From an uncultured delta proteobacterium (GTDB lineage Bacteria > Desulfobacterota > Desulfuromonadia > Geobacterales > DSM-12255), in assembly GCA_963787125.1 (NCBI GenBank), contig CAWBBV010000005.1, forward strand, positions 1-64,000: a DNA stretch of 64,000 nucleotides. Reading direction: 5' to 3'. The position numbers and the translations under genes are program-made. The number at the start of each line of letters is the position of its first letter. The first letter of the stretch is position 1. Positions 24,885-40,045 of the stretch are shown here, piece after piece. The notes beneath the pieces were generated by a model, which was not told where the DNA came from, searched no databases, and worked only from the letters and a program-made list of their open reading frames with translations.

Positions 24885-24931
24885 GTTCAACCAAGCGCAG
24901 CAGCGGTGAACCCGCTGTGCTCTCAGCCGTT
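24885..24931 (+). repeat. attC site 2 (R' box split by an intron; completed by GAGC at 27182-27185)
   Basis: GTTCAAC-caagc-GCA(G)CAGCGG-tgaac-CCGCTGTGC-tctcagcc-GTT|GAGC; very similar to attC6. Confidence 0.85.
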
Positions 24932-27181
24932 GTCGCGACACGATGTCGCGTTGATGACTGTCTGGCTGAATGATGATTATTCTGACCAGACCCCGTGTTC
25001 CCCCGCGGGTATCCTAGGAAGGCGTGCTGCCATGGTGCATCCATGCTGGTGCGGAGCCCTTCCAACAATGTAGCCGAATTCCGCTGTTGCGGGAGGGGCG
25101 GAAACCGTGAGGCGACCGCCCTCCTGGAAGCCTTGATCCGGGTGAGGGCTAGGATTCAAAGGTGATATGGTCAACACAAGTGAACGTTCGCTCGCGCCGT
25201 CAAGGGGAGCAAGCCAAATGAGGCTGACAGGCTTGAACCAAAAGGTATGCAGCCGGTCAGGGGATGTAACGGTGCCCCTGCGGGGACAATAGTGCTGCCG
25301 GTGTACAGAATGGACCTAAGTCACCCATCGTCAGAGACGTGGAACGTGGAAACCCCGTATTTCCGCTCCGGTAGACTGGAGCAGGTGAAACCGTAAGGCA
25401 CACTGTCGGGAGTGCGGGAGTAAGAGGCCGGAAGAAGCGAATGCCGCCCTGTAATGGGACGGATACGGGTTGAAACATCACTCGGCCCGAAAGGGAGCTG
25501 ACGTCCAATGCCGGTGCTCCATTGCGAGATCGTTTGGAGAATCTTCCTTGGGAGGGAAAGCAAATGGCGGCAATCGCAAGATTGACTGGTGCACCCTCCG
25601 CCAGCGGCAACGACTGGAAAGCCATAAACTGGCAGAAAGCCCGCCGCGAAGTCCGAAGACTGCAAATCCGTATCGCAAAGGCTGTCAGGGAAGGTCGCCG
25701 CGGCAGAGTGAAAACCCTGCAATGGCTTCTGACCCACTCGTTTGCCGGCAAAGCATTAGCCGTCAAACGGGTTGTTTCCAATCGAGGAAGAAAAACCCCC
25801 GGCGTGGACGGAGCAATCTGGTACACGCCGAAGCAGAGAATGAAAGCTGTACACACCTTGCAACGTCGCGGTTATCAAGCCCGGCCACTACGGCGGGTCT
25901 ACATACCGAAGAAGAACGGCAAGATGCGCCCTTTGGGTATCCCCACCATGCATGACAGGGCTATGCAAGCGCTTTACGCACAAGCACTGTTACCGGTGGC
26001 CGAGACTAAGGGTGATCCCAATTCATACGGATTCCGCCCGTATCGAAGTTGCGCCGACGCCATCCACCAATGCTACATCGGACTGGCAAAGAAGTACTCG
26101 GCACAATGGATACTGGAAGGAGACATCAAAGCCTGTTTCGACGAGATTGGCCATGACTGGCTCATGAGCAATATCCCCATGGATCGTCTTATGCTCCGGC
26201 AGTGGCTGAACGCAGGGTACTTCGACGAAGGCAGACTCTATCCGACCAAAGCGGGAACCCCGCAAGGGGGAATCATCTCCCCGCTCTTGGCCAACATGAC
26301 TCTGGACGGTCTGGAAGCGGCAGTAAAAGCCGTCACCCCTTACCGCACCAAAGTCAACGTTATCCGCTACGCCGACGACTTCGTCATCACCGGGAAGACG
26401 AAAGAACTTCTCGAAGAGACGATCAAACCAGCGGTAGAAAGGTTTCTTCAAGAAAGAGGTCTCACCCTCTCCCCGGAGAAAACCCGGATAACGCGGATAG
26501 AGGACGGATTCGACTTTCTGGGGCAACACCCGCGCAAGTACAGCGGGAAGTTCCTAACGAAACCGGCCAGGAGCAACTACAGAACCATCCTGACCAGAAT
26601 CAGGGAGACGATCCGGAAATTCTCGGCAATGAAAGCCGGTGATATGATCCGCGCCTTGAATCCGATCATTCGGGGCTGGAGCAACTATCACCGGAACATC
26701 GCCGCAAAAGCCACCTTCGCCGCACTGGACAGCCAAATCTACCGCTACCTGCGGGATTGGGCAAGGAGAAGGCATCCGCACAAGGGGAAGCGCTGGCTGA
26801 CGAAGACATACTGGCACAGCACCCCCGTGAGCACGTACTTCTCCGTGATGGAGAAAACCCCGGAAGGAAAACGCCGGGTAACACTCATTCACGCTACCAG
26901 CACCAAGATCGAGAGACACATCAAGATTCGCGGTGCCGCCAATCCCTTCGACCCGGAGTATGAAGCATACTTCAAGGCGCGAAGAGCCGAGCAACAAAGA
27001 AGGCGAGCAGGTCGCGCCGCCCGAAAAGCGGCGTGAAGGGACAACAACACCGAGGAAAGAAGCAGATAGCCGGGTATCCCGAGAGGGAGATTACTTTGGA
27101 GGGCTTGAGCCGTATGACGGGAAACTGTCACGTACGGTTCTGAGGGGGGAAAGGAGCCGAAAGGCTCCTGACCTACCCGGT
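24932..27181 (+). mobile_element. Group II intron, CL1/IIB-like, inserted in the attC R' box
   Basis: Domain V GAGCCGTATGACGGGAAACTGTCACGTACGGTTC at 27107-27140, domain VI with bulged A, RT ORF; removal restores GTTGAGC; boundaries uncertain by 1 nt. Confidence 0.88.
25564..27036 (+). CDS. ltrA: Group II intron reverse transcriptase/maturase (CL1-like, no HNH domain seen)
   Basis: WKAINWQKARREVRRLQ N-terminus, TPGVDG, RPLGIP, GTPQGG, RYADD, LNPIIRGWSNY, ANPFDPEYEAYF. Confidence 0.92.
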   Translation: MAAIARLTGAPSASGNDWKAINWQKARREVRRLQIRIAKAVREGRRGRVKTLQWLLTHSFAGKALAVKRVVSNRGRKTPGVDGAIWYTPKQRMKAVHTLQRRGYQARPLRRVYIPKKNGKMRPLGIPTMHDRAMQALYAQALLPVAETKGDPNSYGFRPYRSCADAIHQCYIGLAKKYSAQWILEGDIKACFDEIGHDWLMSNIPMDRLMLRQWLNAGYFDEGRLYPTKAGTPQGGIISPLLANMTLDGLEAAVKAVTPYRTKVNVIRYADDFVITGKTKELLEETIKPAVERFLQERGLTLSPEKTRITRIEDGFDFLGQHPRKYSGKFLTKPARSNYRTILTRIRETIRKFSAMKAGDMIRALNPIIRGWSNYHRNIAAKATFAALDSQIYRYLRDWARRRHPHKGKRWLTKTYWHSTPVSTYFSVMEKTPEGKRRVTLIHATSTKIERHIKIRGAANPFDPEYEAYFKARRAEQQRRRAGRAARKAA

Positions 27182-27197
27182 GAGCAAAGAAAAATAA

Positions 27198-27557
27198 ATG
27201 GCTGAAAAAGCATTTTTGAAATCATGGTGGTGGCAATCTCTTGCGTCGTTCCTGATCTTGGTGACGGGAATTATCTTTTGGAGGCTTTTTCTCGTCGGAT
27301 ACATCTACGAACGCCTACATATTGGTATAGGACTTGGAGGAGCTGTCTATCCTGCATTATTCGCACTTCCTGTGCTGGGAGGAGCAGCAGTCTGGCAATG
27401 CCTGATAAGAAGCAGGATAAAAGCAATTTCAGGCATGGAAATCATTTTCATGACTGCAGTGATCCCATCGATAATCACAATCTGCTGTCTTTTCATATTT
27501 TGCCCAACTGATTCCGGTAACTGGCTTCCCGGACTTTTGTTCGTCAAAGGCAAGTAG
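27198..27557 (+). CDS. Cassette ORF, small multi-TM membrane protein
   Basis: 119 aa with three hydrophobic segments; starts 12 bp after the restored R' box. Confidence 0.7.
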   Translation: MAEKAFLKSWWWQSLASFLILVTGIIFWRLFLVGYIYERLHIGIGLGGAVYPALFALPVLGGAAVWQCLIRSRIKAISGMEIIFMTAVIPSIITICCLFIFCPTDSGNWLPGLLFVKGK

Positions 27558-27743: not shown

Positions 27744-29417
27744 CCCCAATCCGCAAAACTATTGGGTTAATATAGTGTAACATGCTATAATCCTTCACAT
27801 AATTGTAGTGAAGGAGCTCACCCGAATGGTGAAAGACAATCTCGGTTTTCAGTATGTAGCAGCCCGACAGACGCTAACTTCCGTAGCAGGATTGGAGCTG
27901 CTCACCACCCTCATACGCCGTCTCGATCTGATTCGAGCCATCAGAAACGAAGTGCGGGTCAAGAAGATCGACTACGGCTTCCGGGAAGAGGAACATCTAA
28001 TCCCGCTGTTACTAAACATTTCCTTACGCCGGACCAGCTACACTGATCTTGCCTGGCTGGCACGGGAAGAGAAACTGCTCAAGAAATCGCTCGGCTTTGG
28101 CAAACTCCCCAAAGAGCGAGCTGTTGCCATGCATCTGGAGAAATATGGCAAAGAGGAAATAACCGGTCTCAAGCGGGTCGGCGCAAAGATTGTTTCCCAG
28201 GCAACCATCACTGCTGAACCGGGAGCTGAAGGTTACATCCCTTGCGATATTGATCCAAGTATTTTTGAGCAGTTTGCGCCCAAACGAGAAGGTGCTCAAA
28301 CCACATACAACGGCAAACTCTGCTATACCCCCGTATTTGCTGTTGTAGGTCGCGAACGGTTCTGCATCAATCACTGGCTGTTGCCAGGACGAGAGAAAGC
28401 TGTCGAACGGATTGACGAATTCATCAGGGAAACGGCAGAGCTGCTCCCCGAGAAAATAGATCGGAACAAGCTCCTGTTTCGCTACGATGCCGGGCTTTAC
28501 AGCATCAAAACTGTTCAAGCCAGCGAAGATGCTAAAGCATACTATCTGGTCAAGGCCCGAGCCAGCGGCGCATTGGATCGAGTGGTAAACGAGAATCTCG
28601 ATGTCGATGTTATGAGCCTCAAAGTCACTGACTTCGGCGGCGAGTTTTACGGAGAATTCGAGTACACCCCAAGCGGCTGGAAAACTCCCCGCCGTTTCGT
28701 CTTCTGTGTTCAGATCAAGTCCGTAGACGAAAAAGGGGAGCCACTGCTGATCAATGATGTCCGCTATCACGTACTGGCCACCAACCTGCCCAAAGATGTT
28801 ACCCCGCAGCGGGCATTCGAACTCTATCGGGGACGTGGAGCGGCAGAGGAGGCAAACAAAGAGCTTAAGCACGATCTGGACCTGGAACGGTTTCCCTCCC
28901 AGACCTTCAGTGTCAACGAAGTATTCCTTACATTGGGAACCATGGCCTACAATCTGCTAATTTTGCTGGGCCAGCAGTGGCGGGATGAAACTGGTGATAT
29001 AGAGACGGACAGTCAGGCAACACCAGTGCGGCGGCGGATCAAGACCATTCAGGATTATCTGCTGCGTAGTGCGGCAATCGTGGTCAATCATGCTCGCAAG
29101 AACCTGCTAAAAGTCAACGGCTGGTGGCTGGAGAAACTTCGCCCTGACAGGATTCAGGCAAGAATCGGCAGGCTTCAGCCGGTAACCTGCTAAAGAAAAG
29201 CTGAAAACGAGATTGTCAAAGAACAAAAAAGCAAGAACAAGGGGGCAGTTCGTCTTCAGTCCGGCAAAAAACATCGTCTGAAGAGGCAAATAGCGCGTCA
29301 CTTTTTGAATTTTAGAGAAAATATGTGTTTTCGACTCCCATCAAAGGGAGCTCACTGAAAAAATACCCCCGAACTCACGCTGCCTGAATGTGTCCGGCAG
29401 AGATTTGCGGATTCGGG
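27744..29417 (+). mobile_element. IS1380-family insertion sequence
   Basis: 17-bp terminal IRs (CCCCAATCCGCAAAACT / CCCGAATCCGCAAATCT, 15/17 match); 5-bp target duplication TTTAT at 27739-27743 and 29418-29422. Confidence 0.88.
27808..29193 (+). CDS. DDE transposase, IS1380 family
   Basis: LTSVAGL, DIDPS, RYDAGLYS, LATNL, YRGRGAAEEANKELK, AYNL. Confidence 0.88.
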   Translation: MKELTRMVKDNLGFQYVAARQTLTSVAGLELLTTLIRRLDLIRAIRNEVRVKKIDYGFREEEHLIPLLLNISLRRTSYTDLAWLAREEKLLKKSLGFGKLPKERAVAMHLEKYGKEEITGLKRVGAKIVSQATITAEPGAEGYIPCDIDPSIFEQFAPKREGAQTTYNGKLCYTPVFAVVGRERFCINHWLLPGREKAVERIDEFIRETAELLPEKIDRNKLLFRYDAGLYSIKTVQASEDAKAYYLVKARASGALDRVVNENLDVDVMSLKVTDFGGEFYGEFEYTPSGWKTPRRFVFCVQIKSVDEKGEPLLINDVRYHVLATNLPKDVTPQRAFELYRGRGAAEEANKELKHDLDLERFPSQTFSVNEVFLTLGTMAYNLLILLGQQWRDETGDIETDSQATPVRRRIKTIQDYLLRSAAIVVNHARKNLLKVNGWWLEKLRPDRIQARIGRLQPVTC

Positions 29418-29491: not shown

Positions 29492-31391
29492 ATCGGGTAG
29501 CCGGGGGTTTTTCTCCCCCAGCCCCCACACCACCCGGCATGCGGGTCCGCACCGGGCGGTTCGATAGAATTACCGGGCCGTAGCCGGGTAGTGAAGCTTC
29601 ACCCACAGTTCTTTGACAGATAATAAGCCTTGATCCTTCAGACATTTGTTGGTCAAACCGGTATGAGCAGCCAATCTTCGGGACATCGCCCACGGGCCGC
29701 TTCTATTCAGGCCCGCTCGGATGGCGGTGCCAAGTTGCGTACCAAGTGCCAGTAGATTCTTGATCTTGGTACGACACCAGCGCCACTGCTTCCAGTAGCA
29801 GAGCCGTATCCTGCGCCGTATCCAGCCGTCTATTTCCGGGATTTCACGGTAATACTCCGAGATTCCGAAGTACCCCATCCAGCCACGGAGATATTGAGCC
29901 AGTTTGTACATCCGGTACTTCATGGAGACCCGCCAGCTTCTTCCGGTGTACTGCTTGACTCGGCGTCTGAACTCCTTGTATGCCTTGTCAGACCAGATGA
30001 TGCGGGTTCCGCTGAAGATGAAGCCAAGGAAGTCTATGCGGGATGTTCTTGCTACCGCACTCTTGGTCTCATTGACTGTGAGTTTGAGTTTGCTGGTCAG
30101 GAAGGTTTTCATTCCTTCCATTACCCGGTCGCCGGCGCGCTGGCTTTTGACGAGGATGACGAAGTCGTCTGCATAGCGGACGAATTTGTGACCGCGTTTC
30201 TCAAGTTCTTTGTCCAGTGTGTCGAGCAGGATGTTGGCTAGAAGCGGCGAGAGTGGGCCACCCTGGGGGACACCCAGTCTGGTCTTTTCAAGACGCCCTT
30301 TTACCTCTACACCTGCCCGTAAGTACTTGCCGATCAGGGCTAGTACCCGCTTGTCGTGAACTTTCTTGCTCACAAGGTGCATGAGCAGATCATGGTTGAC
30401 CGTGTCGAAGAACTTGGCAAGGTCAATATCCACGGCAATCCGGTATCCCTGCTGGATGTACTCCCGCACCTTTCGGACAGCATCTTTTGCTGACCGACGG
30501 GGACGGAAACCGAAGCTCGATGCGGAGAAGTCCGGATCGAAGATCGGTGTCAACACTTGGGCAATGGACTGTTGGATCAGCCGGTCAAGTACAGTGGGTA
30601 TCCCCAGCGGACGGGTTCCACCCGTTGCTTTGGGAATCTCTACCCGCTTTACCGGCAAAGGTTGGTAACTGCCTGTCATTAGCGATTCGCGAATAGTGTT
30701 CCAGTGAGAACGGGTATGGTCGGGGAATTGTTCGATGGTGATGCCATCGACGCCGGGTGCGCCCTTATTGGCTTTGACCCGTTTCCACGCTTGCTCCATG
30801 TTCGCACTGGAGAGTATCCGCTCCAGTAGGTGCTGCTCAGGGGTTGGCTGATCAATGACGCGCTCCATGGGCATTCCCCCGGACGGGTTCGATATGTCAT
30901 GAAAGCTCATTGGTGCTACTCCCCTTTGCTATCGTTCGGCCCTTTGGCGGGGTAAGGCTTCCCGGACTCTCCCGGGCTTGTTTCCAGTTGCCGGATCGCT
31001 TGCGGCAACGTCCTTCGCCTACTATGGCTTCTGCTGACTTCTGCTCCATCACGGCAGCTGTTACCAGATGCCGCGCCATCAGGAATCAATGGCATGCGGA
31101 GCAGATCTCCCCGGATAAGAACGTGAACTGTGGCTACACAACCGCAGCATTTACCATTTCTCCTGAACCCGAGGGACTTCGTCATGTTGTGCTGACTTGC
31201 CCGGATGATGGCCTTGTATGCTGTTTCTGTTCGTCGGCTCATAGCTTTGCGCTCCGGCTTCCTCCAGACCCCTCCTCGCGGAGACGCCCTTGCCTTCGGC
31301 TAGTACTTGGTTTACGCTGTCATCGCGACAGTGTTGGATTCACCGTACAGGGGACTTGCACCCCATAAGTTCACGCCCATGACGGGCGTAC
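29492..31391 (-). mobile_element. Group IIC-attC intron, copy 1
   Basis: 5' GTACGCCCGTCATGGGCGTG, short domain V GAACCGCCCGGTGCGGACCCGCATGCCGGGTGGTG, 3' CTACCCGAT; inserted at A|AC on the bottom strand. Confidence 0.92.
29570..30910 (-). CDS. ltrA: Group IIC intron reverse transcriptase/maturase
   Basis: NKGAPGVDG, RPLGIP, GVPQGGPLSP, RYADD, RRRIRLCYWKQW; start may be 30874 or 30868. Confidence 0.93.
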   Translation of the reverse strand: MSFHDISNPSGGMPMERVIDQPTPEQHLLERILSSANMEQAWKRVKANKGAPGVDGITIEQFPDHTRSHWNTIRESLMTGSYQPLPVKRVEIPKATGGTRPLGIPTVLDRLIQQSIAQVLTPIFDPDFSASSFGFRPRRSAKDAVRKVREYIQQGYRIAVDIDLAKFFDTVNHDLLMHLVSKKVHDKRVLALIGKYLRAGVEVKGRLEKTRLGVPQGGPLSPLLANILLDTLDKELEKRGHKFVRYADDFVILVKSQRAGDRVMEGMKTFLTSKLKLTVNETKSAVARTSRIDFLGFIFSGTRIIWSDKAYKEFRRRVKQYTGRSWRVSMKYRMYKLAQYLRGWMGYFGISEYYREIPEIDGWIRRRIRLCYWKQWRWCRTKIKNLLALGTQLGTAIRAGLNRSGPWAMSRRLAAHTGLTNKCLKDQGLLSVKELWVKLHYPATAR

Positions 31392-31442
31392 ACCAACGCT
31401 ATGCACCCGTCAAGCGGGTGATGCTATTACGTTGATCAAAAA

Positions 31443-33903: not shown

Positions 33904-33956
33904 GTATAACCAGACAGAAGCAGCGGTGAACCCGCTGTTCTGCCAAACCGTTCGGC
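33904..33956 (+). repeat. attC site 6 (53 bp)
   Basis: GTATAAC-cagac-AGAA(G)CAGCGG-tgaac-CCGCTGTTCT-gccaaacc-GTTCGGC. Confidence 0.88.
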
Positions 33957-33975
33957 AACACAATCGAGGATATAT

Positions 33976-34890
33976 ATGAATAGAAAAGCGTGTGTAATCT
34001 TATGGCTTCTATTAATGAACGTAGTAAGTAAAGGTTATGCTATTACCATCGTGCAACCTGAGAACAATGCTGTTTTTCATGCAGGGCAGAAAGTAAAAGT
34101 TGTAGTTCTTCCTTCGCATGGAGAAAAGCTTAATGGAATGTGGATTAAAACAACAAGAGGTAGTTCGGAAATTCTTGAAGGGCCACCTTTTGAAACTGAG
34201 CTAAAATTAGATGATAAATATGTAGGTAAAGAGAAAATTACTGCGATTTCAAAAATTAACAAAGACAGAGATATAGTGGAATCATCAATAAGTATCACAG
34301 TTCAACTTCCATCGGATGTGAAACTGGAAAAAATTAAGACTAACCCAATTATGGTAATATACATTGCACCTAAATCGGAGCCATTAAATACAAGTAAAAT
34401 ACAAATTAGCTCATTGTTTTCAGATGGAATTTGGAGAGATCTCCATATTCTTAGCGATGTCAGATTCGCAAGTAGTGATACCAATATTGCTACAGTTGAC
34501 AAACAAGGCATTGTCACCGCTAAAAATCTAGGTTTAACGACAATATCAATTAACGCAGGCGGTAAGAATGCATCAGTTAAGGTTCATGTTAGCCTTGATA
34601 TTGAAATAGATGAAGTATTACTCGTTAAACCAACAGATACAGGCATTCAACTAAACTGGAAGCTCTCCCCGCAAGACCCGGAATGGGTCACCGGTTACAT
34701 GGTATTCAGAACCGAGGATCCGGACGGTGTAATTAAAAGGAAAATTGCCGATCTGCCAAACGGCACGAACACCTATATTGATAGGACTGCGGAGAAGTTG
34801 AAGGCTTATTATTACGGTGTGCAAGCTATTTCTACGTCTACAAATGAGCGATCTAGAATGACTAATATGACACCCATGGTGTTGCCTTGA
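33976..34890 (+). CDS. Cassette ORF, secreted Ig-like and FN3-like domain protein
   Basis: Signal peptide, FASSDTNIATVDKQGIVTAKNLGLTTISI (Big_2-like), LNWK...GYMVFR...YID...YYYGVQAI (FN3-like). Confidence 0.82.
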   Translation: MNRKACVILWLLLMNVVSKGYAITIVQPENNAVFHAGQKVKVVVLPSHGEKLNGMWIKTTRGSSEILEGPPFETELKLDDKYVGKEKITAISKINKDRDIVESSISITVQLPSDVKLEKIKTNPIMVIYIAPKSEPLNTSKIQISSLFSDGIWRDLHILSDVRFASSDTNIATVDKQGIVTAKNLGLTTISINAGGKNASVKVHVSLDIEIDEVLLVKPTDTGIQLNWKLSPQDPEWVTGYMVFRTEDPDGVIKRKIADLPNGTNTYIDRTAEKLKAYYYGVQAISTSTNERSRMTNMTPMVLP

Positions 34891-34927
34891 GCGAGAGAGC
34901 AAGCAGTTAGCAAGGAAAGACTGCCGA

Positions 34928-36827
34928 ATCGGGTAGCCGGGGGTTTTTCTCCCCCAGCCCCCACACCACCGGACATGCGGGTCCGCATCCGGCGGTTCGA
35001 TAGAATTACCGGGCCGTAGCCGGGTAGTGAAGCTTCACCCACAGTTCTTTGACAGATAATAAACCTTGATCCTTCAGACATTTGTTGGTCAAACCGGTAT
35101 GAGCAGCCAAGTCTTCGGGACATCGCCCACGGGCCGCTTCTATTCAGGCCCGCTCGGATGGCGGTGCCAAGTTGCGTACCAAGTGCCAGTAGATTCTTGA
35201 TCTTGGTACGACACCAGCGCCACTGTTTCCAGTAACAGAGCCGTATTCTGCGCCTTATCCAGCCGTCTATTTCCGGGATTTCACGGTAATATTCCGATAT
35301 TCCGAAGTACCCCATCCATCCACGGAGATATTGAGCCAGTTTATACAACCGGTACTTCATGGAGACCCGCCAGCTTCTTCCGGTATACTGCTTGACTCGG
35401 CGTCTGAACTCCTTGTATGCCTTGTCAGACCAGATGATGCGGGTTCCGCTGAAGATGAAGCCAAGGAAGTCTATGCGGGATGTTCTTGCTACCGCACTCT
35501 TGGTCTCATTGACTGTAAGTTTGAGTTTGCTGGTCAGGAAGGTTTTCATTCCTTCCATTACCCGGTCGCCGGCGCGCTGGCTTTTGACGAGGATGACGAA
35601 GTCGTCTGCATAGCGGACGAATTTGTGACCGCGTTTCTCAAGTTCTTTGTCCAGTGTGTCGAGCAGGATGTTGGCTAGAAGCGGCGAGAGTGGGCCACCC
35701 TGGGGGACACCCAGTCTGGTCTTTTCAAGACGCCCTTTTACCTCTACACCTGCCCGTAAGTACTTGCCGATCAGGGCTAGTACCCGCTTGTCGTGAACTT
35801 TCTTGCTCACAAGGTGCATGAGCAGATCATGGTTGACCGTGTCGAAGAACTTGGCAAGGTCAATATCCACGGCAATCCGGTATCCCTGCTGGATGTACTC
35901 CCGCACCTTTCGGACAGCATCTTTTGCTGACCGACGGGGACGGAAACCGAAGCTCGATGCGGAGAAGTCCGGATCGAAGATCGGTGTCAACACTTGGGCA
36001 ATGGACTGTTGGATCAGCCGGTCAAGTACAGTGGGTATCCCCAGCGGACGGGTTCCACCCGTTGCTTTGGGAATCTCTACCCGCTTTACCGGCAAAGGTT
36101 GGTAACTGCCTGTCATTAGCGATTCGCGAATAGTGTTCCAGTGAGAACGGGTATGGTCGGGGAATTGTTCGATGGTGATGCCATCGACGCCGGGTGCGCC
36201 CTTATTGGCTTTGACCCGTTTCCACGCTTGCTCCATGTTCGCACTGGAGAGTATCCGCTCCAGTAGGTGCTGCTCAGGGGTTGGCTGATCAATGACGCGC
36301 TCCATAGGCATTCCCCCGGACGGGTTCTTTATGTCATGAAAGCTCATTGGTGCTACTCCCCTTTGCTATCGTTCGGCCCTTCGGCGGGGTAAGGCTTCCC
36401 GGACTCTCCCGGGCTTGTTTCCAGTTGCCGGATCGCTTGCGGCAACGTCCTTCGCCTACTATGGCTTCTGCTGACTTCTGCTCCATCACGGCAGCTGTTA
36501 CCAGATGCCGCGCCATCAGGAATCAATGGCATGCGGAGCAGATCTCCCCGGATAAGAACGTGAACTGTGGCTACACAACCGCAGCATTTACCATTTCTCC
36601 TGAACCCGAGGGACTTCGTCATGTTGTGCTGACTTGCCCGGATGATGGCCTTGTATGCTGTTTCTGTTCGTCGGCTCATAGCTTTGCGCTCCGGCTTCCT
36701 CCAGACCCCTCCTCGCGGAGACGCCCTTGCCTTCGGCTAGTACTTGGTTTACGCTGTCTCGCGACAGTGTTGGATTCACCGTACAGGGGACTTGCACCCC
36801 ATAAGTTCACGCCCATGACGGGCGTAC
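34928..36827 (-). mobile_element. Group IIC-attC intron, copy 2
   Basis: Near-identical to copy 1 with the same termini; inserted at bottom-strand TTGT|T. Confidence 0.92.
35006..36347 (-). pseudogene. ltrA: Group IIC RT/maturase copy 2 with a one-base frameshift near the C-terminus
   Basis: Extra G at 35111 relative to copy 1 changes ...SRRLAAHTG to ...SRRLGCSY. Confidence 0.8.
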
Positions 36828-39145: not shown

Positions 39146-40045
39146 TTAGCCCGCAGAGAAGCTGTAACTCCCCATGCCGTAGGTCGCCCCTTTGCCGATG
39201 TTGAGCCGGCTGCCAAGGGAGAGAAAGGGGTTGAAATCCGTCAGATCACCGCGATAAGTCACCGCCCCTTCCACCCCTTGCAACCCGCCACCCCGGTTTA
39301 CCCATGAAAGTTCCGTAGAGACGCAGCTGATCTCCCGGCTCCGCTCCGCCAGCCATTTGAAATCGTGGGGTAGCTCCTCCTGACCGTAGTAATAGGCCAG
39401 GGAAGAGATGCGTCTGAACAACGCGCCGGCAACAGCGGGGAATGGCAGCTCCCGCAGGGGGAGGCCTTTATGGATGAGCCGCACGGGAGTCAGGAAATTA
39501 ATGGTTAGCTGTGAACAGGCGGCGCACTCGTGGGAGAAAAGTTCGTCAAAAGAGAGCAGCGGCAGGGAGGAGAATTCGTCCCCGACAATCTCTGCCGGGA
39601 GCGTGACACGCGTGCCATCCCCTGAGGCCGCTTCTACAGCGGTAATGCTCCAGTTATTGAAGCATCCGGAAGAGGCAAGGATGAATCTCACCGCTTTGAT
39701 GAAGAGGCCGAGCTGACTGATTGCATCTCCGGCAATGACAAGGGCGAGTTCAACCCCCTTGCGCTCCGGCCGCGTCCCCGGGAGCACCGGGATTTTGAAG
39801 GCAAACGGCAGCGGCGGCTTCTGGTAACGGCGCAGCGCCGCCGGATCGGAAGTAAGCGTCTGGTCGAAAACAGCCCGGCAGGGGCAGGCAGGACCGGCGC
39901 TGCAGCCGAGGTCACTGGTCAGGCAGCCGGTCACCCGGCGCAAAGCTGCCGGGAAATGCTGCTTTATAGCGAAGAGCACGTGGGGGTTGAGCTTTTCCGC
40001 AGGGGTGACCAACTTGAAATAAATCTGCACAAAAGGGGTGTTCAT
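39146..40045 (-). CDS. cas6: Stand-alone Cas6-like RAMP endoribonuclease
   Basis: C-terminal G-rich loop NIGKGATYGMG, FLTPVRL, LFRRISSL, N-terminal Cys cluster. Confidence 0.8.
   Translation of the reverse strand: MNTPFVQIYFKLVTPAEKLNPHVLFAIKQHFPAALRRVTGCLTSDLGCSAGPACPCRAVFDQTLTSDPAALRRYQKPPLPFAFKIPVLPGTRPERKGVELALVIAGDAISQLGLFIKAVRFILASSGCFNNWSITAVEAASGDGTRVTLPAEIVGDEFSSLPLLSFDELFSHECAACSQLTINFLTPVRLIHKGLPLRELPFPAVAGALFRRISSLAYYYGQEELPHDFKWLAERSREISCVSTELSWVNRGGGLQGVEGAVTYRGDLTDFNPFLSLGSRLNIGKGATYGMGSYSFSAG

Follow-up and report, generated by a model that had tools for sequence, protein, structure and literature searches.

The sequence analysed here, hereafter the window, comprises 64,000 nt (positions 1 to 64,000 of contig CAWBBV010000005.1, assembly GCA_963787125.1) of an uncultured delta proteobacterium. 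At about 23.3–38.9 kb it carries an integron-type cassette array in which one attC recombination site is split by a group II intron. The intron is real and full-length: it spans 2249 nt (24933–27181, plus strand), begins with UCGCGAC and ends with CCCGGU. Its domain 1 segment (24991–25149, plus strand) matched Rfam family RF02012 (group-II-D1D4-7) with 91.3 bits against a gathering score of 34, covering model positions 1–151 of 151. The 3′ end (27105–27181, plus strand) matched the full model, positions 1–77, of Intron_gpII (RF00029, domains 5 and 6) with 69.8 bits against a gathering score of 40. According to the Rfam alignment, domain 5 occupies 27107–27140 and contains the catalytic AGC triad at 27108–27110, while domain 6 occupies 27144–27178 and, as read by eye, has its bulged branch-site A at 27175, the seventh base from the 3′ end. 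The 5′-terminal hairpin CGCGAC-ACGAU-GUCGCG (24934–24950) is kept in all aligned relatives, including those with the canonical start GUGCGAC.

The intron encodes an intact 490-amino-acid reverse transcriptase (RT)/maturase with a YADD motif (open reading frame (ORF) 25564–27036, plus strand). Pfam searches identified RVT_N (1.3e-31), RVT_1 (1.3e-42, profile positions 1–203 of 205) and the maturase (X) domain GIIM (1.4e-22), the set typical of a protein encoded in domain 4 of a group II intron; no HNH endonuclease domain is present. These matches, together with those of domains 1, 5 and 6, confirm the first-pass annotation of the sequence, which had placed a group II intron here. Among proteins of solved structure, the best relative was chain 6ME0_C (E-value 1.8e-163, 548 bits; residues 3–478 aligned to 7–483 of 562), the next best reaching only 1e-39. 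We take 6ME0 to be the T.el4h retroelement protein of Thermosynechococcus. The T. elongatus introns of the TeI4h family belong to the chloroplast-like (CL)/IIB1 class (Mohr et al. 2010, PMC2882425). The window intron is thus IIB-type and probably chloroplast-like, as had also been proposed, an assignment made from its best solved relative and from the loop of a second exon-binding sequence (EBS2).

The intron ends are not canonical. Instead of 5′-GUGYG…AY-3′, the intron has UCGCG…GU, and these ends recur throughout the close clade of relatives, in all of which the 3′ end CCCGGU is conserved; more distant relatives retain GUGCGAC. The first intron base of the clade is a pyrimidine and never the canonical G. 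In two relatives (L046 and L059; L numbers denote related loci), the 5′ junction shows C (CCGCGAC) in place of U.

The exons flanking the intron together form an attC site. Its 5′ part (24885–24932, plus strand) consists of the R″ box GTTCAAC, an imperfect hairpin, a spacer and the GTTG of the R′ box, and the R′ core ends with GAG, the first three bases of the 3′ exon, at 27182–27184 on the same strand. The boxes read GTTCAAC for R″ (consensus RYYYAAC) and GTTG|GAG for R′ (consensus GTTRRRY), with the imperfect hairpin between them. The 5′ part folds on the top strand and passed our scripted attC test (47 nt, dG −9.1); the extra bases on the 5′ (R″/L″) arm are clear in sister attC sites. Insertion took place after GTTG of the R′ core, so that four of its seven bases remain next to L′, and lies 3 nt from the G|TT crossover point, one more than previously noted. 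A paralogous intron-free attC lies at 33904–33956, and a 45-nt look-alike attC in the related locus L045 bears a related intron.

The window contains seven attC-like sites between 23.7 and 36.9 kb. Six of them end in CCGTT, as first reported, and the seventh (near 31393–31440) ends in ACGTT. The intron is inserted in the top strand and is co-oriented (sense) with the cassette genes, again as first proposed. Immediately downstream lies a cassette ORF of 119 amino acids without a Pfam family (27198–27557, plus strand), which has a paralogue in the integron array of another contig, C4. A search for the uninterrupted site through paralogues of this downstream cassette yielded only 69–72% matches (C4:131799–132130 and G150), whose leaders were too diverged to reveal the junction. 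The idea that splicing restores an mRNA was not upheld: no ORF is interrupted, and splicing would therefore just remove 2.25 kb from a polycistronic transcript. The accompanying suggestion that the insertion blocks cassette excision is conjectural. No intI was found on the window's own contig, which makes this a CALIN-type array (cluster of attC sites lacking integron integrases).

The 30 contigs of the genome contain a second copy of the intron, 100% identical over 2249 nt, on the minus strand of C4 (152977–155225) and in another attC, indicating recent duplication into a second site. An integron integrase gene (C4:161732–162667, plus strand; TIGR02249, 340.9 bits) is situated about 6.5 kb from this copy, and around the copy are eight further attC-like sites on the strand expected for cassettes of that integron. 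Counting its own, nine attC-like sites are thus arrayed at cassette spacing beside an integrase. The base preceding UCGCGAC is G in the window copy (24932) and A in the otherwise identical C4 copy; among close relatives it is G, A or absent.

Exon recognition was assessed on a domain 1 alignment of the window intron and 47 related introns, which gave 42 distinct intron/exon pairs. The first exon-binding sequence (EBS1) is UAACGG (25267–25272), presented in the hairpin CAGGGG…CCCCTG (25258–25280, plus strand), and its intron-binding partner (IBS1) is CCGTTG (24927–24932, plus strand; exon −6 to −1). All six positions pair at the window site, including one G–U, and base 24932 (exon −1) pairs with U25267; the C4 copy has CCGTTA. 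Over the alignment, 219 of 252 EBS1/IBS1 cells were paired, compared with a mean of 125.6 after shuffling, and none of 2000 shuffles gave as many. For the 21 pairs below 70% RT identity alone, the count was 100 of 126 against a shuffled mean of 52.8. Chance pairing is excluded. Each of columns 25267–25272 pairs with its partner at exon −1 to −6 in 30–40 of 40–42 cases (36 of 41 for 25267 with −1). For column 25273 and exon −7 the count is only 12 of 42, so the register AACGGT (25268–25273) given in the first-pass annotation has to be moved by one base, even though the hairpin itself lies where it was described. EBS1 differs between introns and in each case matches the exon beside that intron: UAACGG/CCGTTR, AACGGG/CCCGTT, TGATAG/CTATCA, TGCATG/CATGCA, GCAGTA/TACTGY and CCATTC/GAATGG.

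The probable EBS2 is GGGAGC (25205–25210, plus strand) in the loop AAGGGGAGCAAG (25202–25213), complementary to the probable IBS2 GCTCTC (24919–24924, plus strand; exon −14 to −9); both motifs are at the positions originally described. By eye, this loop and exon −14 to −8 covary: CGCAC/GUGCG in L010, CAGGC/GCCUG in L022, UAUGA/UCAUG in L013 and AUGAG/CUUAU in L011, L012 and L023. Pairing of the 5′ exon with both an EBS1 of about 6 nt and an EBS2 is a IIB feature; here, covariation is strong for EBS1, and EBS2 pairing is weak in the C4 copy, L116 and L049. At the first position of the 3′ exon, to which an EBS3 in the coordination loop pairs in IIB introns, the 24 junctions have 12 G, 8 A and 4 T while C25281 is invariant, which leaves the suggestion that this C pairs with the first 3′-exon G without support. 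A search for an EBS3 partner by covariation of domain 1 columns with position +1 found none and yielded solely conserved U columns; +1 is a purine in 20 of 24 cases, with which a fixed U could pair.

Related introns were collected from genomes (32 loci) and metagenomes (80 loci), and the 5′ junction was located in 47 of these 112 loci. Loci with at least 73% RT identity were treated as one clade, which comprises 24 junctions including the two of this genome and is found mostly in genomes of Geobacteraceae/Desulfuromonadales type and in sediment and soil metagenomes. Junctions ending in CGTT, CGTTG or CGTTA made up 23 of the 24, or 22 of 23 distinct ones, L051 and L052 being duplicates. In all 21 distinct clade members, EBS1 can pair without mismatch with the conserved R′ end at −1 to −5. 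The scripted attC test, a crude regex-plus-fold procedure requiring an R″-like box 44–90 nt upstream and a dominant hairpin, was positive for 15 of the 24 clade junctions and for 30 of 3000 random CGTT sites on contig C1 (1%). The test misses sites that are attC-like by eye, such as the C4 copy, L009, L012, L048 and L053, and by eye 20 of the 24 are attC-like. A MAFFT alignment of 12 attC sites gave no consensus structure. Inspecting the flanks of close RT homologues had been proposed as a check, with unrelated, non-attC targets as the outcome that would speak against attC targeting; that outcome was not obtained.

Some junctions deviate. L042 has just 40 nt of flank, and in L049 only the 3′ arm is visible. 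L050 matches IBS1 at six of six positions without a hairpin, and L057 combines an altered EBS1 with a matching non-attC exon; these last two therefore point to recognition by sequence and not by the hairpin. Downstream flanks have a short leader followed by ATG on the same strand, in keeping with cassette starts and a sense orientation. Introns of a sub-branch with EBS1 AACGGG insert at GTT|, the others at GTTR|RRY.

A quick IQ-TREE phylogeny was built from RT high-scoring segment pairs of at least 420 amino acids that were free of stops, with duplicates removed. A single clade of 23 among the 79 rows (Shimodaira–Hasegawa-like approximate likelihood ratio test support 94) contains every one of the 19 that have a CGTT target, and its other four rows are L057 and three without a located junction. 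This topology indicates one origin of the CGTT-targeting lineage. Sister clades start with UUGCGAC or GUGCGAC and have other targets that are not attC-like. Outside the clade, a metagenomic locus with 53% RT identity (L080) has EBS1 CTAACG and exon CGTTAT, with AACG/CGTT pairing and no evident hairpin; it may represent an independent or ancestral use of the CGTT target. Full-length intI was present in three of five intron-bearing metagenome-assembled genomes (MAGs). In one (G001) it lies on a different contig from the intron L008.

An observation on the intron ends came from RNA library run X2, an ice metatranscriptome. A 413-nt contig with a depth of about 147 joins 27071–27181 directly to 24933–25113, with no ambiguous bases. 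The contig maps in the order 25536–25599, 27071–27181, 24933–25113, and because it skips 25599–27071 (1471 nt) it comes from an ORF-less relative. Such an end-to-start junction is as expected of full-length circular intron RNA. The boundaries 24933–27181 are thus set by the EBS1/IBS1 covariation, by the different −1 bases (G and A) of the two identical copies and by this contig.

Taken together, these data favour, with a probability of roughly 0.85, a full-length and probably active CL/IIB1-type intron with an endonuclease-less RT, belonging to a clade that homes into the top (coding) strand of attC sites through EBS1 pairing. As judged from the covariation, EBS1 UAACGG pairs with the end of the attC, CCGTT plus a purine, which comprises one or two bases ahead of the conserved R′ triplet, the GTT triplet and the first R, and thereby fixes the insertion at GTTR|RRY; the predicted pairing of the EBS2 loop with the L′–R′ spacer is partly shown. 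Since the R′ core recurs at every cassette junction, an array would offer many homing sites. The intron RNA would reverse splice into the top strand of an unfolded attC, and with no endonuclease the cDNA would be primed from nascent replication-fork DNA, as in other endonuclease-less introns. Co-orientation with the cassettes would make the intron removable by splicing from read-through transcripts. Its position 3 nt downstream of the IntI crossover would make it formally the 5′ end of the next cassette. Mobility or activity of this intron is probable from its sequence and that of its relatives.

Several points weigh against this interpretation. The identity of the attC sites rests on our own script and on reading by eye, and short-read metagenome contigs may join flanks that do not belong together. 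In the arrays, to which the attC scan of the genome was restricted, at least ten attC-like sites carry CCGTTR without an intron, so that either mobility is low or IBS2 or other determinants limit insertion. Non-canonical ends (UCGCG…GU rather than GUGYG…AY) impair splicing in model introns. The end-to-start junction is a single contig, it derives from an ORF-less relative, and the library may contain DNA. Among the RNA runs none contained more than 0.12 of the sampled words of the organism itself, the contigs found being those of relatives, whose depth and gaps have no bearing on this locus. EBS2 pairing amounts to only about 4 bp in the C4 copy and is likewise poor in L116 and L049, and the EBS3 search gave no covarying partner. 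At the window site itself, a start at 24932 restores a better R′ consensus (GTTGAGC) than a start at 24933 (GTTGGAG).

One extension of the preferred interpretation seems possible, if on balance unlikely: positioned 2–3 nt past the crossover, the lineage may also be carried by integrase-mediated excision and capture of cassettes, in addition to its own retrohoming, and be spliced from array transcripts. The same types of attC are found again next to related introns, with different cassette genes upstream, which fits such carriage without proving it. If true, the retroelement would have the integron as a second transfer vehicle and might change which cassettes remain excisable. The metagenome contigs L042 and L043 are identical over 300 bases downstream of the intron but have different attCs upstream and a different base at −1 (G and A). 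This could reflect co-movement of intron and cassette, or chimeric short-read assembly across the repeat.

Mainly structural recognition, as in class IIC, is a good deal less probable than sequence-based targeting. In that scenario, the attC hairpin is what the intron or its protein recognises, and the short pairing serves only to set the exact site. About 20 of the 24 junctions do follow a hairpin, the many unoccupied CCGTTR attCs imply that something else matters, and Sonbol & Siam speculate, in the portion of their article used here, on a role for the top-strand hairpin (PMC7923331). IBS1 and IBS2 are, however, both part of the 3′ hairpin arm and can pair only once the hairpin has opened, and the intron has a 6-nt EBS1 and an EBS2 loop, unlike IIC introns. 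L050 shows the IBS1 match without any hairpin, and L057, having changed its EBS1, left attC sites.

That the window copy is a splicing-dead relic, its first base U and its 3′ GU abolishing both splicing and movement, appears improbable. Neither the canonical GUGYG nor the AY end is present, and G1 is important for both splicing steps in model introns. Against this stand the two fully identical copies at different sites with an intact ORF, and the conservation of the ends across a clade whose EBS1 and IBS1 covary, which speaks for continuing mobility. The end-to-start contig in the RNA library also disagrees with a dead relic, and UHB.I2, an intron discussed below, has been reported with UUGCG…GU ends (PMC7923331).

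The boundaries of the first-pass annotation, with an intron at 24932–27181 starting with G, EBS1 AACGGT pairing with GCCGTT, C25281 pairing with the +1 G and insertion 2 nt from the crossover, are very improbable. They have local appeal at the window site: the first base is the canonical G, AACGGT does pair with GCCGTT, and removing 24932–27181 does arithmetically give GTT plus GAGC, a textbook R′ with seven of seven bases paired with R″ GTTCAAC (partly a hand count). The 5′ splice site nevertheless lies one base to the right. The C4 copy has A at this position and relatives have G, A or no extra base. Pairing of 25273 with −7 (12 of 42) falls far below that of 25267 with −1 (36 of 41), and the RNA-library contig joins 27181 to 24933, not to 24932. 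By hand count of sites with both flanks, the restored R′ is fully GTTRRRY at 3 of 15 sites for a start at 24932 and at 8 of 15 for a start at 24933, and C25281 never varies though +1 does. Scarcely credible is the absence of any true targeting, with selection removing all other insertions and sparing harmless intergenic ones in attC: such junctions are indeed non-coding and the array tolerates mobile DNA (an insertion sequence (IS) and two IIC introns), but each of the 21 distinct clade members has an EBS1 complementary to the R′ end, the position of insertion is exact to the nucleotide, and the scripted attC background at CGTT sites is 1%.

A full-text literature search on group II or IIB introns with integrons or attC returned only Sonbol & Siam 2021 (PMC7923331) as linking IIB introns with integrons. 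Their UHB.I2 is a IIB1/CL1 intron from the Tanatar-5 soda-lake metagenome, where it lies in a cassette array (Mob DNA 12:8). From the parts of the article consulted, UHB.I2 resembles the window intron in being sense to the cassettes, in lying “immediately after an attC”, in encoding an endonuclease-less RT of about 500 amino acids, in its ends UUGCG…GU and in having no EBS3 bulge. Table S1 of that article gives the IntegronFinder attC as c(7295..7364) and the intron as c(5096..7296); given this 2-nt overlap, UHB.I2 is likewise inserted inside R′. By eye, the equivalent loop in the printed sequence is AGAACG, which would pair with a CGTT-containing exon. It differs in its UUGCGAC start, found also in our loci at 54–59% identity with non-attC flanks, which points to another clade. 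In the sections of the article used here, the authors treat it as one case, describe “poor conservation” of the flanking exons and do not propose R′ as a pairing target. The element described here is therefore a well-documented example, within the best-documented clade, of a kind published once, and not a new kind, so the novelty first claimed for it was overstated; what it adds is a targeting logic shared across the lineage, together with the non-canonical ends.

The IIC-attC introns (the S.ma.I2 and Ge.s.I1 lineage; Leon et al. 2010, PMC3001079, consulted in part) are, like the present clade, mobile introns specialised for attC with an endonuclease-less RT. They differ in inserting antisense into the bottom strand at R″, whereas the present intron enters the top strand in sense orientation at R′, with a 6-nt EBS1 and an EBS2. 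IIC introns have a short ribozyme without EBS2 and rely on an upstream hairpin. RmInt1-type (class D) introns also have no endonuclease, their priming presumably coming from replication-fork DNA, and they target insertion sequences. They share the lack of an endonuclease with the window intron but belong to another RT class and another ribozyme subclass, and their targets are not attC. The CL/IIB1 introns TeI4h, TeI3c and EcI5, in the extracts of PMC2882425 used here, likewise recognise their targets through EBS1 and EBS2. ORF-less derivatives occur both among these introns (PMC2882425) and in the present lineage (the run X2 contig). The TeI4h protein has 562 amino acids and an endonuclease (En) domain, compared with 490 and none here, and these introns have canonical ends and diverse genomic targets other than attC, according to the same source.

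In many bacteria, mobile adaptive genes are stored chiefly in integron arrays, and the only well-studied introns that invade these arrays belong to class IIC and use the opposite strand. The present clade gives a base-level account of a second route, backed by many relatives, in which the EBS1 of a IIB1 intron is complementary to the conserved attC end. Its non-G first bases mean that annotation pipelines tuned to GUGYG would misplace such introns by at least one base. The clade also offers a testable system, both for an endonuclease-less IIB intron acting on a structured, repeated DNA site and for recombination of an intron-bearing attC.

Besides toxin–antitoxin pairs, a SUKH protein, other small plus-strand ORFs and an IS, the array of the window contains two further introns, both of group IIC-attC type and 98.5% alike, at 34928–36827 and about 29493–31392 on the minus strand. 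Both have entered the bottom strand of an attC, at TTGT|T of R″, as IIC-attC introns are described to do (PMC3001079; PMC8876359). The genome has about nine copies of this intron, of which three lie in the integron array of C4. The IIB intron at 24933–27181 does not fit this type in its sense orientation, its R′ position, its EBS2 loop and its CL-like RT, and the view that it takes a sequence-based route distinct from that of IIC-attC introns held. The last part of the Big_2 cassette, together with its attC, is 95% identical between window positions 34850–34928 and C4:155281–155359; the window attC bears a IIC intron in R″ and its C4 homologue the IIB intron in R′. The two intron types have therefore invaded one attC family, from opposite strands and at opposite ends of the site. 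In the first IIC copy, the ORF (34812–36347) extends about 115 nt beyond the intron 3′ end.

A second full-length integrase gene is present on contig C23 of genome G000 (106715–107650, 337.8 bits), with no attC-like array found within 27 kb on the expected side. In the window, a DDE transposase gene (DDE_Tnp_1_4, 1.4e-29; 27808–29193, plus strand) lies between the cassette downstream of the IIB intron and the nearer IIC copy. The cassette array is followed closely by a minus-strand ORF (39146–40045) that encodes a CRISPR Cas6 domain (PF10040, 8e-14).

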